Positions 20,954 through 31,010 of a DNA stretch of 35,415 nucleotides are shown piece after piece. Source of the stretch: a virus (lineage: Duplodnaviria > Heunggongvirae > Uroviricota > Caudoviricetes); the IMG/VR virus record IMGVR_UViG_2711768052_000009; one strand, given 5' to 3'. The notes beneath the pieces were generated by a model, which saw nothing but the letters and a program-made list of their open reading frames with translations, made no database searches and had not been told where the DNA came from. Made by a program: the position numbers and the translations under genes. The first letter of the stretch is position 1. The number at the start of each line of letters is the position of its first letter.

Positions 20954-21069
20954 AAACGTCCCCGTTTAGCGCAGAAGTCACCGGAGTTGTTCAGGCTCCG
21001 GTGACATAATTATGCCGTGTTGATTTCCCAAAATCAAAATCGATAGAATTGCTCCTTCTTAAAACACTT

Positions 21070-27086: not shown

Positions 27087-27632
27087 TCATATTGCCCCCA
27101 GCATGGTGGTGACCATCGCCATCAATGGACCAGCCAGATCCGGGTCCACTCGAAACATCGACACAATGCCTTCACTCATCTCCTTCAGTTTCTGGTGGCG
27201 TGGTGCGTTGAGAATGACCGCCTGCTTTGCCTCACAGAGTTCCTTTTCCATTTCAGCCAGCCGAGCCATGAAGCTATCCTGCTCAACCAGGTGGCCGCGA
27301 TATTCCAGCGGTAGTACCGCCAGAATTGCCGGGGTCAGTTCACGCACGTTATTTCGGTATTTTTCAGAATCGAATTTGTTATCGAGGAAGCGGAACAGCT
27401 TCTGGCGTGCACGGCTGACATCATCAGGGAAATCGATGGTGCCGCCGCCCTGCTCCCGATACTCATTCACAATGAGTGCGGCAACAACATCCTGATTATC
27501 TGCAGCCGACCAGGCGCGAACGGCATCACGGATTTTTTCGTGGCCTGGCACCTGTTTTATTTGAGAACGATTTATCACCGCAGTCGGGCTAAATCCGCTA
27601 GTCTGTTGGTATGTAAGTGGTTGCATAATCAT
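27087..27632 (-). CDS. YdaT-like protein (DUF1019) in the cII position
   Basis: 181 aa, MIMQPLTYQQTSGF...; segment NEYREQGGGTIDFP...LTPAILAVLPLEYRGHLVEQDSF resembles the Rac prophage YdaT core as remembered; not lambda CII-like. Confidence 0.65.
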   Translation of the reverse strand: MIMQPLTYQQTSGFSPTAVINRSQIKQVPGHEKIRDAVRAWSAADNQDVVAALIVNEYREQGGGTIDFPDDVSRARQKLFRFLDNKFDSEKYRNNVRELTPAILAVLPLEYRGHLVEQDSFMARLAEMEKELCEAKQAVILNAPRHQKLKEMSEGIVSMFRVDPDLAGPLMAMVTTMLGAI

Positions 27633-27656
27633 TGCCTTATCAGTTAACGCCGCAGT

Positions 27657-27884
27657 TTAGGCGGCAGAATTACTCGCGTTAAACAATGGTGCAAGGTCGG
27701 GACGAATATCTGCTGGTTTAATCTTTCCACCAGTGGCTGAGACAATTTTCATTACATAGCGGGCATCAATTCCGCCACCGTGTAGCCAACGCCAAACAGT
27801 GGGCTGGGCTACACCGCATAGATCTGCCAGTCGTTTTTGACTACCTGTAATACTGATTGCGAGTTGAATGGTTTGATTTGTCAT
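27657..27884 (-). CDS. cro: Cro-like HTH repressor (YdaS/Cro family)
   Basis: 75 aa from ATG 27882-27884: MTNQTIQLAISITGSQKRLADLCGVAQPTVWRWLHGGGIDARYVMKIVSATGGKIKPADIRPDL; HTH at QKRLADLCGVAQPTVWRW; divergent from cI across the operator region. The track start is TTG two codons upstream. Confidence 0.75.
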   Translation of the reverse strand: MTNQTIQLAISITGSQKRLADLCGVAQPTVWRWLHGGGIDARYVMKIVSATGGKIKPADIRPDLAPLFNASNSAA

Positions 27885-27994
27885 TATCAATTCCTATTGG
27901 TATTACAATGAATGGATAATAGCAATGCGTATTAACCCAATCAATAGCAAAACGTGTTTTGACCATCAATACGCAAGCGTATAAATTAAAACTT
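27885..27994. promoter_or_regulatory. Immunity control region: divergent PR (to cro) and PRM (to cI) with candidate OR operator repeats
   Basis: Minus strand: -35 TTGATT (27939-27944) / 17 bp / -10 TATTAT (27916-27921) for cro. Plus strand: -35 TTGACC (27959-27964) / 15-16 bp / TATAAAT (27980-27986) ending 8 nt before the cI ATG. Motif AATAGCAA at 27918-27925 and 27943-27950 (25-bp spacing). Confidence 0.6.
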
Positions 27995-28687
27995 ATGAAA
28001 AAAGAAACTCTTGCTGATCGCTTAAACCTAGCGATGGAACAATCTGGAATGTCTCAAGGCGCTCTTGCAAAGGCGTCTGGCGTAGCTCAACCCACAATCT
28101 GGAGACTGACAAGCGGCAACGCACGCGGCTCAACAAAAATTGTTGAAATAGCTAATGCATTGGGTGTTCGAACAGAGTGGCTCTCATCAGGCATAGGCCC
28201 GATGAGAAATGACGGTCAACAATCAGGGAAGCCTGCTGCCAACCATCCCAAATACTTCAAGATTGACGTTCTTGATATAGAAGTGAGTGCCGGGCCGGGA
28301 GTCATCAACCGTGAGTTTGTAGAAGTTCTACGCTCGGTTGAGTACTCGTTTGACGATGCTCGTCACATGTTCGATGGCAGGAAGGCGGAAAATATCCGTA
28401 TCATTAACGTACGCGGTGACAGCATGTCAGGAACGATCGAACCAGGTGATCTGCTGTTCGTTGATATCACGGTTAAATCTTTCGACGGTGATGGTATCTA
28501 TGCGTTTCTGTACGACGACACAGCCCATGTAAAGCGCCTGCAAATGATGAAGGATAAACTGCTGGTTATCTCTGATAACAAGAGCTACTCACCGTGGGAC
28601 CCAATCGAGAAAGACGAGATGAACCGGGTATTCATCTTCGGGAAAGTCATCGGGAGCATGCCGCAGACGTATAGGAAGCATGGATAA
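27995..28687 (+). CDS. cI: CI-type prophage repressor (N-terminal XRE HTH plus C-terminal S24 LexA-like autopeptidase)
   Basis: 230 aa from ATG 27995: MKKETLADRLNLAMEQSGMSQGALAKASGVAQPTIWRL...; Ala-Gly cleavage-site candidate in VSAGPG; S24 motifs GDSMSGTIEPGDLLFVD and HVKRL (Ser/Lys dyad). The track ORF starts at an upstream TTG. Confidence 0.85.
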   Translation: MKKETLADRLNLAMEQSGMSQGALAKASGVAQPTIWRLTSGNARGSTKIVEIANALGVRTEWLSSGIGPMRNDGQQSGKPAANHPKYFKIDVLDIEVSAGPGVINREFVEVLRSVEYSFDDARHMFDGRKAENIRIINVRGDSMSGTIEPGDLLFVDITVKSFDGDGIYAFLYDDTAHVKRLQMMKDKLLVISDNKSYSPWDPIEKDEMNRVFIFGKVIGSMPQTYRKHG

Positions 28688-28782
28688 TTCGACATAAATT
28701 CAACAAGTTAACTTTGGCTTCAAAAAAGCATCGATAACATTGCATTATATTTTTCCTTTTGTCTAACTTAAAAGGATGAACA

Positions 28783-29508
28783 ATGGAAGAACGTGGGAAT
28801 TACCTAATAGAACCCCTAGAAGTAATTGGTTCTGGCGGTTTTGGCCTTGTAGAAAAAATAAGGTTATATAACTCACAAAGAAAAATTTGTGGTCTATATG
28901 CCAGAAAAATTTTACGACCTGATGCAACAGATCCTGAACTCTTTACCAGATTTGAACGAGAAGTAAGATATCAAACTGAATGCCTGCATACTAATATTGT
29001 CCAAATATTCATATGCCACTTACAGAATGCTCAGCCTTGGTTCGTAATGGAACTAGCAGAAACAAATCTTGAAGAAGAAATAAAAAGTGGAACTCTTACA
29101 AAGGCTGAAAAAATCTCTATTGTAAAAATGGTACTAAATGCCGTCGGATGGATTCATAAGAAAGGATATCTTCATCGGGATATAAAACCACTAAATGTAC
29201 TAAAATTTAAAGATGGAATTTATAAGTTATCTGACTTCGGCCTTGCAAAAAATGTGTCACCAGATGCCAATACACAGCTATTAACACAAATTGGCCAATA
29301 CCCCGCTACTCCTAAATACTTTGATTACAACGTTTTCCTCAACGGATATTCAAAACAATCAGATATATATTCAATTGGTATTTTAATTGAAGAATTAAAT
29401 ATTGATGGTTTTGATGATATAATAAACAAATGTACGCATAGACAACTTAACAAAAGATTCCTGACCGTAGAGCAGATCTTTGAGGAATTGGAGTTGAAAC
29501 GCTTATGA
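28783..29508 (+). CDS. Hanks-type (eukaryotic-like) Ser/Thr protein kinase, minimal catalytic domain only (241 aa)
   Basis: ATG 28783 with AGGA RBS; Gly loop IGSGGFGLV (res 15-23); beta3 Lys in YARK (res 40-43); catalytic loop HRDIKPLN (res 131-138, nt 29173-29196); DFG in LSDFGLAK (res 150-152); APE-like ATPKY; DIYSIG (subdomain IX). No TM or sensor domains. AT-rich. Confidence 0.85.
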   Translation: MEERGNYLIEPLEVIGSGGFGLVEKIRLYNSQRKICGLYARKILRPDATDPELFTRFEREVRYQTECLHTNIVQIFICHLQNAQPWFVMELAETNLEEEIKSGTLTKAEKISIVKMVLNAVGWIHKKGYLHRDIKPLNVLKFKDGIYKLSDFGLAKNVSPDANTQLLTQIGQYPATPKYFDYNVFLNGYSKQSDIYSIGILIEELNIDGFDDIINKCTHRQLNKRFLTVEQIFEELELKRL

Positions 29509-30248
29509 TTAGCATACTCTCATCATCCATATTTTCTGTACCAAAACATAATGGCAGGGAAAATCAAGATAGCGTGCTTTATCCACTTCAAACACCAAAT
29601 GGTTATCTTATGGCTATAGCTGATGGGGTTGGTGGTTATAAAGGAGGAAAAGAAGCATCTGCAGCAGTAATAAATCATTTGTATAGTATTAAAGACAGCT
29701 TCACTCATGAAGACAATGTCTTATCCTTACTTAAGACCCTACAAGAAAAGGTGGCATCTCTTTCGTCAGTTGATAAAGAATTAGCATCTGCTGCTACAAC
29801 TTTAACAATGTGCCTACTTCACAATCAAGGTCTAACAATTATACATGTAGGTGACTGTCGTGTTTATTTAAAAAATGGAAATAAGCTAATCCAATTAACA
29901 ACAGATCATACTCAACATCAAATGTTGATAGATAGCGGTATTTATACAGCTCGACAGCTCAAAAATGCAAAAGGTAAAAATATTATTACAACTGCACTTG
30001 CTGCCAAGATCCCCCTTCAACATCAAGTCATAAATATTGATAAAGATGAACTTCCTCTTGACGATGGTGTTCTATCTCTATTCATCATGTCTGATGGCGC
30101 GCATACCTTTTGGGAGCAACGCCCACGATTTTCTTACCGTACATTGTCAACCGCATCAAGGTTTGCCTCCAGCCTAATGCGAAGAATAGAGACAAAAGGC
30201 CCGACTGACGATTATTCTCTTATAGCGGTAAATGTAAAGTATTTGTAA
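29505..30248 (+). CDS. PP2C/PPM-family Ser/Thr protein phosphatase (247 aa)
   Basis: ATG 29505 overlapping the kinase stop (ATGA); PPM motifs IADGVGGYKGG, HVGDCRVY (GDSR-type), TTDHT, FIMSDGA; compact bacterial PP2C size. Confidence 0.8.
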   Translation: MISILSSSIFSVPKHNGRENQDSVLYPLQTPNGYLMAIADGVGGYKGGKEASAAVINHLYSIKDSFTHEDNVLSLLKTLQEKVASLSSVDKELASAATTLTMCLLHNQGLTIIHVGDCRVYLKNGNKLIQLTTDHTQHQMLIDSGIYTARQLKNAKGKNIITTALAAKIPLQHQVINIDKDELPLDDGVLSLFIMSDGAHTFWEQRPRFSYRTLSTASRFASSLMRRIETKGPTDDYSLIAVNVKYL

Positions 30249-30253
30249 ACTTC

Positions 30254-30280
30254 CCGGCCACCGTGCCGGGTTTTCTTTTA
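30254..30280 (+). terminator. Rho-independent terminator ending the cI-kinase-phosphatase transcript (tImm-like)
   Basis: CCCGGCcaccgtGCCGGG hairpin followed by TTTTCTTTT, 6 nt after the phosphatase stop. Confidence 0.8.
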
Positions 30281-30404
30281 TCCCCTCCCCTCATCACATA
30301 TACCGTTCAAAAAACCACCACAATCTCCCTTCAGTTATCGCTATGCGATGCAAGTCACAAAATTAATTCTTTTTGCTATCAAACAGTTAATATCAAAACA
30401 CATC

Positions 30405-30455
30405 AATCAATAGCAATAAGTATTGATACCGCCAATAGCAATAGCTATTATTACC
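30405..30455 (+). promoter_or_regulatory. Candidate PL promoter with OL operator repeats
   Basis: -35 TTGATA (30423-30428) / 17-bp spacer / -10 TATTAT (30446-30451), oriented toward the downstream ORF and gam-bet-exo; CAATAGCAA at 30408-30416 and 30433-30441 (25-bp spacing), the same motif and spacing as at OR. Confidence 0.6.
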
Positions 30456-30644
30456 ATGTCGCAACAACACAACGATACGGCAACCGCCTGATTCACCGTT
30501 GCGATGACCGCTTAGATCCGCAGCTTGAATTTCGGCAGGCTCCGGGGAGTGCGAGGGGTGAAACGGACGCGTGAACGTCGGTGTGACCAGCTGAAATCAA
30601 CTCAACACCTCATACCTCAGTCGCTTCAACGAGGCGGCTTAGTT

Positions 30645-30935
30645 ATGACAACCGGCGGCCATCCACCGCCTGAATACGCGCAGAAGTCTCTATATGTTCA
30701 GCAGCCCAGCTTACGGGCAGGAGTTTTTATGGTTCATCAACATTATGGAACGCAGACCGTTAATCGAGGTGCGGTCATGCCAGGAATGCTGGTCAAACAC
30801 AAAGATGGTACCTGGACTGCATCAGCTAATTTACGCGGACGGCTTTATCTGCATCGCGGCATCGAGCGCACTTATACCCGTGATTTGCTCGTGGAAGTTT
30901 TTCTCGACGGACGCGGTAACGGCCTGAATCACTAA
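30645..30935 (+). CDS. Hypothetical protein, first gene of the PL operon (occupies the N/kil position); possible upstream GTG start at 30558
   Basis: ATG at 30645 gives 96 aa ([48 protein letters not shown]...); the frame is open upstream, and GTG 30558 (GGGGAG SD 8 nt upstream) would add an Arg-rich segment VKRTRERRCDQLKS. No family recognised. Confidence 0.5.
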
Positions 30936-31010
30936 TCCCCTTTCCTGTTTTCCTAATCAGCCTGGCATTTCGCGGGCGATATTTTCACAGCCATTTTCAG
31001 GAGGTCAGCC

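Follow-up and report, generated by a model that had tools for sequence, protein, structure and literature searches.

We analysed a 35,415-nucleotide stretch of viral DNA (the window; IMG/VR record IMGVR_UViG_2711768052_000009), which is a lambdoid prophage of E. coli, with a focus on the gap between its cro and cI genes. The two genes are divergent, with cro starting at 27884 on the minus strand and the cI ATG at 27995 on the plus strand, and the gene calls confirm a gap of 110 bp (27885–27994), as reported in a previous annotation in which a model had read the letters of the window without database searches (the sequence-only reading). According to that reading, the gap holds a promoter toward cro (PR), a second one toward cI (PRM) and two copies of a repeated element, AATAGCAA. 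We find that the gap is very probably the right operator (OR) of a lambdoid CI/Cro switch, with three phased sites (OR1 to OR3), a fourth operator-like site in the cro leader (O4) and matching sites at the left operator (OL).

Promoters, repeats and operator sites

A consensus scan, made independently of the sequence-only reading, returned PR and PRM back to back, with the hexamers and spacer previously given for PR (TTGATT, 17 bp, TATTAT), as well as a promoter at OL (PL; Table 1). The AATAGCAA element occurs exactly four times in 35.4 kb when both strands are searched (27918, 27943, 30409 and 30434), always in the same orientation. These copies form two pairs with a spacing of 25 bp each, one in the cro–cI gap and the other at PL, and the arrangement described earlier was recovered in full: OR1 shares 4 nt with the PR −10 and OR2 shares 2 nt with the PR −35, and the geometry of OL1 and OL2 at PL is identical. 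The number of copies is unremarkable (1.4 expected; 8 of 100 shuffles reach four). As for their clustering, two pairs within 40 bp arose in none of 2,000 dinucleotide shuffles and a single pair in 4 of 2,000, so the element, which a motif search across the prophage confined to the two pairs, does not recur at a similar rate through AT-rich DNA. OR and OL share 71% identity over a 49-nt stretch.

As we read these sites, each operator is a 16-bp pseudo-palindrome, AATAGCAA joined to TTGCTATT, of which AATAGCAA is the better-conserved half; the 14-bp core has the form ATAS-N6-STAT. The element therefore marks the predicted CI sites, as had been proposed, but makes up only half of each. OR1, OR2 and OR3 are phased at 25 bp, and OR3 was missed by the exact search for AATAGCAA because it carries the variant half-site AATACG. 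Its arms form a palindrome with zero mismatches (a perfect 6-bp ATACGC/GCGTAT), and self-complementary positions number 12 of 16 in OR3 and 14 of 16 in OL1. The two sites previously counted on PR stand, but the count for the region rises to three at 25 bp, plus a conserved fourth in the cro leader. The place of OR3 over the PRM −10 is the one that a switch of the lambda type needs. From this layout, we interpret the sites in the gap as the OR of a lambdoid prophage and 30409–30451 as its left operator and promoter.

A half-site matrix was built from five sites of the window (OR1, OR2, OR3, OL1 and OL2). Across the whole window, the best match outside the operators scores about 12, apart from one match of 13.4 that overlaps O4 in another register. 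This top match off the operators, AATCCCCTTTCCTGTT (30934–30949), lies at the end of the kil-like gene and is not immunity-specific, because it is also present in a phage of different immunity (L069, position 5135). The palindrome ATACGCNNGCGTAT was tried as a general consensus and set aside: at three mismatches it was found 16 times compared to 13.3 expected, and the half-site matrix worked better.

Table 1. Genes, promoters and predicted operator sites of the immunity region, in window coordinates
Feature	Position	Strand	Sequence or product	Remarks
YdaT-family protein	27632..27087	-		cII position
cro	27657..27884	-	75 aa, YdaS-type Cro; helix-turn-helix ...CGVAQPTVWRWLHGG	from open reading frame, Pfam, PDB, orthologue alignment
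O4	27889..27904		AATTCCTATTGGTATT	operator-like site in cro leader; matrix score 16.8
PR	27944..27916	-	TTGATT/17/TATTAT	TG upstream
PR -10	27916..27921	-	TATTAT	after TGC (extended -10); partly formed by OR1 half-site
OR1	27918..27933		AATAGCAATGCGTATT	matrix score 20.9; -77 from cI ATG in nearly all related loci
PR -35	27939..27944	-	TTGATT	
OR2	27943..27958		AATAGCAAAACGTGTT	matrix score 16.5; -52 or -51 in related loci; right end abuts PRM -35
PRM	27959-27987	+	TTGACC/17/TAAATT	
PRM -35	27959..27964	+	TTGACC	
OR3	27968..27983		AATACGCAAGCGTATA	matrix score 15.8; -27 in related loci; overlaps PRM spacer and -10
PRM -10	27982..27987	+	TAAATT	inside block TATAAATT
cI repressor	27995..28687	+	230 aa; 434-like helix-turn-helix (...SGVAQPTIWRLTSG...) and Peptidase_S24 (autocleavage, oligomerisation)	from Pfam, PDB
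Ser/Thr kinase	28783-29508	+	241 aa	rexAB position; from Pfam
PP2C phosphatase	29505-30248	+	247 aa	rexAB position; from Pfam
Intrinsic terminator-like hairpin and T run	30253..30280	+		would close immunity operon just before OL
Possible weak OL3	30365..30380		AATTCTTTTTGCTATC	matrix score 8.9; right half-site alone good; 44 bp from OL2; doubtful
OL2	30409..30424		AATAGCAATAAGTATT	2-nt overlap with PL -35
PL	30423-30451	+	TTGATA/17/TATTAT	
OL1	30434..30449		AATAGCAATAGCTATT	4-nt overlap with PL -10

Related loci and the specificity of CI and Cro

To compare the region with its relatives, one genome per species was scanned, yielding 55 further prophages (L008–L062) whose CI N-terminal domain is 61–95% identical, from Kluyvera, Citrobacter, Enterobacter, Raoultella, Erwinia, Pantoea, Mixta, Proteus, Providencia, Morganella, Serratia and others. 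The alignment used for the counts below comprises 60 loci from about 20 enterobacterial genera. Intergenic identity to the window is ~79% for the P22-like Salmonella phages BTP1, ST104, ST160 and SE1, ~75% for Klebsiella phages and ~68% for Yersinia phages. In these three groups of phages and in the 55 prophages, the top matrix matches fall at constant offsets from the cI ATG: −77 (OR1), −52 (OR2), −27 (OR3) and often −106 (O4). Information content across the 60 loci is 1.76 bits at outer operator positions compared to 1.03 bits at operator centres and 0.44 bits in the spacers between operators. Within half-sites, positions 2–4 (ATA) are present in 89–92 of 94 and position 5 is G or C. The relatives also carry a cluster of 2–4 sites beyond the immunity genes, upstream of the leftward genes, in which a strong OL3 stands 20–26 bp from OL2 and is often the perfect palindrome AATAGCAATTGCTATT.

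The two proteins encoded beside the gap are consistent with a shared operator. CI matches the Pfam families HTH_3 (E = 1.8e-6) and Peptidase_S24 (E = 1.3e-18), and its residues 6–67 match PDB entries of the 434 repressor (1sq8, 2r63 and 1per; phmmer E = 1.5e-5 to 6.5e-5), with UmuD also matched. CI and HK022 CI are 40% identical overall, and most of this identity lies in the C-terminal domain. Cro belongs to YdaS_toxin (PF15943; E = 9.6e-15), with a weak match to P22_Cro and a match to Xfaso1 Cro in PDB (3bd1; E = 1e-3). The recognition helices of the two proteins are near-identical (GVAQPTIWRL in CI and GVAQPTVWRW in Cro) and, in the alignment, invariant among orthologues from E. coli, Salmonella and Klebsiella. 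CI and Cro would bind the 16-bp sites as dimers.

A natural control, phage PhiR47_2, links helices to operators. From about residue 85, the C-terminal domain of its CI is the same residue for residue (~97% DNA identity), and the neighbouring genes keep the same layout (a cII of YdaT size, O, P, kil and gam). Its recognition helices differ (VSQAAIQKI in CI and VSQQAVYKW in Cro), and its OR and OL carry AACAACCA-type repeats, where the matrix of the window finds no match. The operator motif therefore goes together with the recognition helices, as cognate sites should.

The sequence-only reading could not assign the specificity to a known immunity group. Judging from the operator layout and from the helix-turn-helix motifs of the two proteins, we predict that it is of the ST104/BTP1 type, shared by ST104, BTP1, ST160 and SE1, by the E. 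coli phages D2, 4A7, Lambda_4C10 and Perceval, and by prophages in many other Enterobacterales. The first 92 residues of CI are ~75% identical to those of ST104 and BTP1, with an invariant helix-turn-helix and the segment MSQGALAKASGVAQPTIWRLTSGNARGS identical in all three; Cro is likewise homologous, with an invariant helix-turn-helix and the identical segment QPTVWRWLHGGGID. In BTP1 and ST104, OR1 reads AATAGCAAT(T/G)AGTATT, OR2 is identical to that of the window and OR3 reads AATAC(T/G)CAAGCGTATA; all three sites and PRM stand at the same offsets within ~79% identical DNA. Both phages have two OL sites 25 bp apart, upstream of an N-like gene (gene 24). They differ from the window in their virion and replication modules, have a classical CII/C1 activator where the window has YdaT, and carry an N-like gene as well as the accessory gene bstA (or an ORF23 homologue) in place of the kinase and phosphatase. 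The 'ST104' repressor was already listed as a separate predicted specificity among P22-like phages by Villafane and colleagues (PMC2629481).

Against other known systems, the specificity is not that of 434, lambda, P22, HK022 or CP-933P. Phage 434 operators have four conserved outer, six variable central and four conserved outer base pairs, and the CI and Cro of 434 share a near-identical recognition helix. The operator core of the window has this same layout, and its CI N-terminal domain aligns with residues 1–63 of the 434 repressor (PDB 2or1, 1per). In contrast, the recognition residues are Q-P-T-I-W-R rather than the Q-Q-S-I-E-Q of 434, the outer bases are ATAS (ATAG or ATAC) rather than ACAA...TTGT and the C-terminal domain is HK022-like; the operators and helix of the window do not fit 434 immunity specificity. 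HK022, which the ST104 record invokes (cI and cro 'similar to HK022'), was rejected as the source of the immunity: homology is limited to the C-terminal domain of CI, the HK022 operators are TGAACCATAAGTTCA-like and the N-terminal domain of HK022 CI belongs to Phage_CI_repr. HK022 CI occupies neighbouring operators with high cooperativity and forms OL–OR loops; a further operator of HK022, outside OR1–OR3, lies ~300 bp downstream of OR (PMC8053113), unlike O4, which stands 29 bp from OR1.

CP-933P of E. coli O157:H7 resembles the window in its YdaS-family Cro, a YdaT-family protein at the cII position and a leaderless repressor gene, as predicted for cI of the window. Its switch has four phased intergenic repeats, of which one lies past PR, and a PL-like promoter carries matching sites (PMC8630535, PMC9986795); the repeats, bound by PaaR2 and YdaS, have the consensus GTTTAGTAA (PMC8630535). 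Neither GTTTAGTAA nor its complement is present in 27885–27994. YdaT of the window is only distantly related to that of CP-933P (E = 2.5e-4), and the CP-933P repressor operon carries a toxin–antitoxin pair rather than a kinase and a phosphatase. One sequence recalls the CP-933P YdaT operator, TTGATTN6AATCAA: TTGATTTGTCATTATCAA (27873–27890) straddles the cro start codon at one mismatch from it, and a perfect copy, TTGATTTCCCAAAATCAA, lies at 21020–21037 between the ninB-like and ybcM-like genes (chance ~0.002 per window). A YdaT operator at TTGATTTGTCATTATCAA was not used in the model, because the two YdaT proteins are remote from each other and the site is weaker in phage D2.

The cI start and the proposed switch

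The earlier proposal of a near-leaderless cI rested on a PRM −10 ending 'about 8 nt' before the ATG; the distance to the A of the ATG measures 7 nt, and the gap between TATAAATT and the ATG is also 7 nt in 59 of the 60 loci. The promoter itself is strongly conserved, TTGAC being kept in 54–60 of 60 loci per position and TATAAATT in 58–60. The sequence of the 7-nt gap varies, with no conserved Shine–Dalgarno-like purine run among the 60 aligned loci, and the 6 nt preceding its last base are the least conserved stretch of the region. That last base, at −1 of the ATG, is a pyrimidine in all 60. Counting from TAAATT as the −10, a start on the eighth base downstream, which is a normal distance, would fall on the A of the ATG and place a purine at +1 after a pyrimidine at −1. 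An alternative −10, TATAAA (27980–27985), speaks against a start exactly at the ATG and would give a leader of 2–3 nt rather than zero, yet either choice leaves no room for a ribosome-binding site. The cI message is thus predicted to be leaderless or nearly so, with PRM transcription probably starting no more than 3 nt from the A of the ATG. Lambda makes a leaderless cI message from PRM, although this trait is not universal among lambdoid switches. This part of the sequence-only reading holds as far as the fixed gap and the missing room for a ribosome site go, the start itself being a prediction.

A longer cI has also been annotated. The GenBank records of D2 (L001, 4360–5088) and BTP1 (L003, 3590–4315) place the cI start codon at a TTG 36 nt before the ATG, and these 36 nt form an open in-frame stretch in the window as well as in BTP1 and a Klebsiella phage. 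If cI were translated from this TTG (27959 in the window), or from a leadered message in some other way, the real lysogenic promoter would have to lie further upstream. We give this arrangement little chance. The TTG is the first half of a near-invariant TTGAC that stands 17 bp from an equally conserved TAAATT and therefore reads as the −35 of PRM, and the cI annotation in D2 and BTP1 is probably 12 codons too long. In addition, no Shine–Dalgarno sequence precedes TTG 27959, a 1-nt deletion between TTG and ATG shifts the frame in one relative (L022), the bases just before the ATG are those conserved least, and cI starts at the ATG in RefSeq/PGAP and in three other records, including ST104 and Klebsiella. 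In lysogens of BTP1, a single transcription start site serves both cI and bstA, the accessory gene downstream of it (PMC7067206).

The arrangement suggests a switch that, by homology with lambda and 434, would work as follows. In a lysogen, CI bound cooperatively at OR1 and OR2 would cover both the −10 and the −35 of PR, and CI at OL1 and OL2 would cover PL in the same geometry. From OR2, which abuts the PRM −35, CI would probably stimulate PRM, and at high concentration its occupancy of OR3 would cover the PRM −10 and stop its own synthesis. Cro, acting through the same sites, would lower PRM and later PR. The PRM message would carry cI, the kinase and the phosphatase, leaderless or nearly so, and end at the terminator at 30253. 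Looping between OL and OR is plausible by analogy, as they are 2.49 kb apart and the C-terminal domain of CI is homologous to that of HK022 CI.

Many of these features are those of lambda: a divergent cI–cro gene pair, three operators in phase (two on PR, OR1 and OR2, and one on PRM, OR3), OR2 beside the PRM −35, operators repeated at a PL ~2.4–2.5 kb away, accessory genes and a terminator between cI and OL, an S24 autocleavage domain in CI and a cI start one promoter-discriminator length from the −10. Lambda operators are spaced by 24 and 23 bp. Those of the window are spaced by 25 and 25 bp, unrelated in sequence and 16 bp long (14-bp core) compared to 17 bp, and the window differs further in its extra conserved site in the cro leader, a YdaS-type Cro, YdaT at the cII position and the lack of a visible N gene after PL.

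Several points weigh against this switch model. The 60 loci were chosen by a peptide pattern containing the recognition helix and are related by descent, so their conservation counts are not independent events and show constraint rather than independent origins. OL3 is weak in the window. If +1 is the A of the cI ATG, the centre of OR2 lies at about −44.5, slightly further upstream than the −42 of lambda, which makes activation of PRM by CI at OR2 only an analogy. Finally, the searchable literature yielded no binding, footprint or transcript 5'-end data for the orthologues.

Two other accounts of the repeats were weighed against the operator model. The recognition units could be the 8-bp direct repeats AATAGCAA themselves, 25 bp apart, with neither dyad symmetry nor an OR3. 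The exact 8-mer is indeed the most obvious repeat, its four copies share one orientation, and the authors of the CP-933P study were undecided between direct and inverted repeats (PMC8630535). Against this, right halves are kept as the reverse complement GTAT(T) at 1.9–2.0 bits; OL1, OR3 and many OL sites of relatives are near-perfect or perfect palindromes; the variant half AATACG stands at the 25-bp phase over PRM in all 60 loci; and CI falls in the dimeric, 434-like helix-turn-helix class. We therefore see only a very slim chance that two direct repeats suffice. Slimmer still is the chance that PR and PL are merely duplicated promoters whose repeats are shared promoter parts and not repressor sites. 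Such an origin would account for the overlap of the motif with the −10 and −35 of both promoters, and the reverse complement of the half-site, TGCTATT, does provide the TGn-TATT of the PR −10. Among relatives, however, the PR −35 keeps TTG within hexamers that vary (such as TTGCTT and TTGTTA) while the operators do not, and sites occur without a promoter hexamer, namely O4 and, in relatives, OL3. The motif is also replaced wholesale when the CI and Cro helices change, whereas the lambdoid layout around it is unchanged (cro, cII of the YdaT type, O, P, the CI C-terminal domain, kil and gam). We accordingly retain 16-bp operators as the preferred account.

O4 is the only mildly unusual element of this operator model, which otherwise makes no conceptual addition to the lambda/434 paradigm. 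It would occupy about +6 to +21 of the predicted PR transcript, overlaps the cro Shine–Dalgarno sequence and has its centre 29 bp from that of OR1. Although O4 was not used to train the matrix, it scores as high as the trained sites, and matches of this grade are expected at ~7e-4 per 110 bp of AT-rich random sequence. Its right half, GTAT, is kept in 54–60 of the 60 related loci. On the other side, its left half coincides with the cro Shine–Dalgarno sequence, so that part of the conservation has another cause and is only partly diagnostic, and the site is degenerate in BTP1 (L003, 3520–3535) and ST104 (L004), where TATTCCCTTTCGTATA scores 9.4 compared to 14–17 in most relatives. OR3 of BTP1 also has a G-to-T change. 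That OR of the ST104/BTP1-type immunity is a four-site operator, with O4 a real site for CI, Cro or both and a layer of repression absent from lambda, is a tentative proposal that we hold possible rather than probable. As such a site, O4 would probably add repression, either by pairing with OR1 in cooperation at the unusual 29-bp phase or as a roadblock to elongation and cro translation.

Prophage setting and wider relevance

The cro–OR–cI segment of the window (27600–28750) is 97–98% identical to that of E. coli phages D2, 1W, 3W, 4A7, Lambda_4C10, Perceval and several PhiR phages, and 718 of 5,426 complete E. coli genomes (~13%) contain 80% or more of it. A mosaic joint lies within cI at ~28236 (CI residue ~80). 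From the joint to the stop codon, cI has 93–97% DNA identity to PhiR47_2, IdasGreatGrand, PhiR5_1 and Turner, which differ in their N-terminal domain, Cro and operators. Because of this joint, 2,213 E. coli genomes match part of the query and just 718 match most of it. Beyond the terminator, the gene order continues with a kil-like gene, gam and bet, and the opposite flank holds O, P, ren, emrE and ybcK.

The kinase and phosphatase coding regions, which overlap by 4 nt, are placed between cI and OL. In PADLOC, three models of anti-phage kinases, PD-T4-6, mad6 and Stk2, match the kinase (E = 1e-39 to 1e-27), and the sole match of the phosphatase is a weak one to the candidate model PDC-M21C. 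Related phages carry GevT/GevA, bstA, ParA-like genes and other cargo in this slot. The pair is probably a prophage-encoded defence module expressed from PRM; judging from the layout, the terminator and the single cI–bstA start site of BTP1, the two genes presumably share a transcript with cI.

Between PL and the first leftward gene, a kil/dicB-like open reading frame (30727–30935), no N-like antiterminator gene is seen in 30452–30738. The PL leader (~270 nt) has no Rfam match at gathering score, only noise below threshold; it does not resemble the PL-nun region of HK022, and its predicted folding is on a par with that of shuffled sequence (z = 0.35). After these results, the idea of a put-like antitermination RNA or some other RNA in the leader was dropped.

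Six operator 14-mers had no match in the searchable literature, where text matches to bare AATAGCAA are swamped by single-guide RNA scaffolds, and we therefore take the map of the operators to be undescribed, though entirely conventional. Its specificity appears to be shared with medically relevant Salmonella phages, namely BTP1 of ST313 and ST104 of DT104, and with prophages of many Enterobacterales. The map allows prediction of homo-immunity between prophages, correction of the cI start and the design of reporter and induction experiments. If O4 is real, the CP-933P YdaS switch, with its four repeats, may act likewise, and the degenerate O4 of BTP1 could, as speculation, contribute to the unusually high spontaneous induction reported for that phage (PMC7067206).

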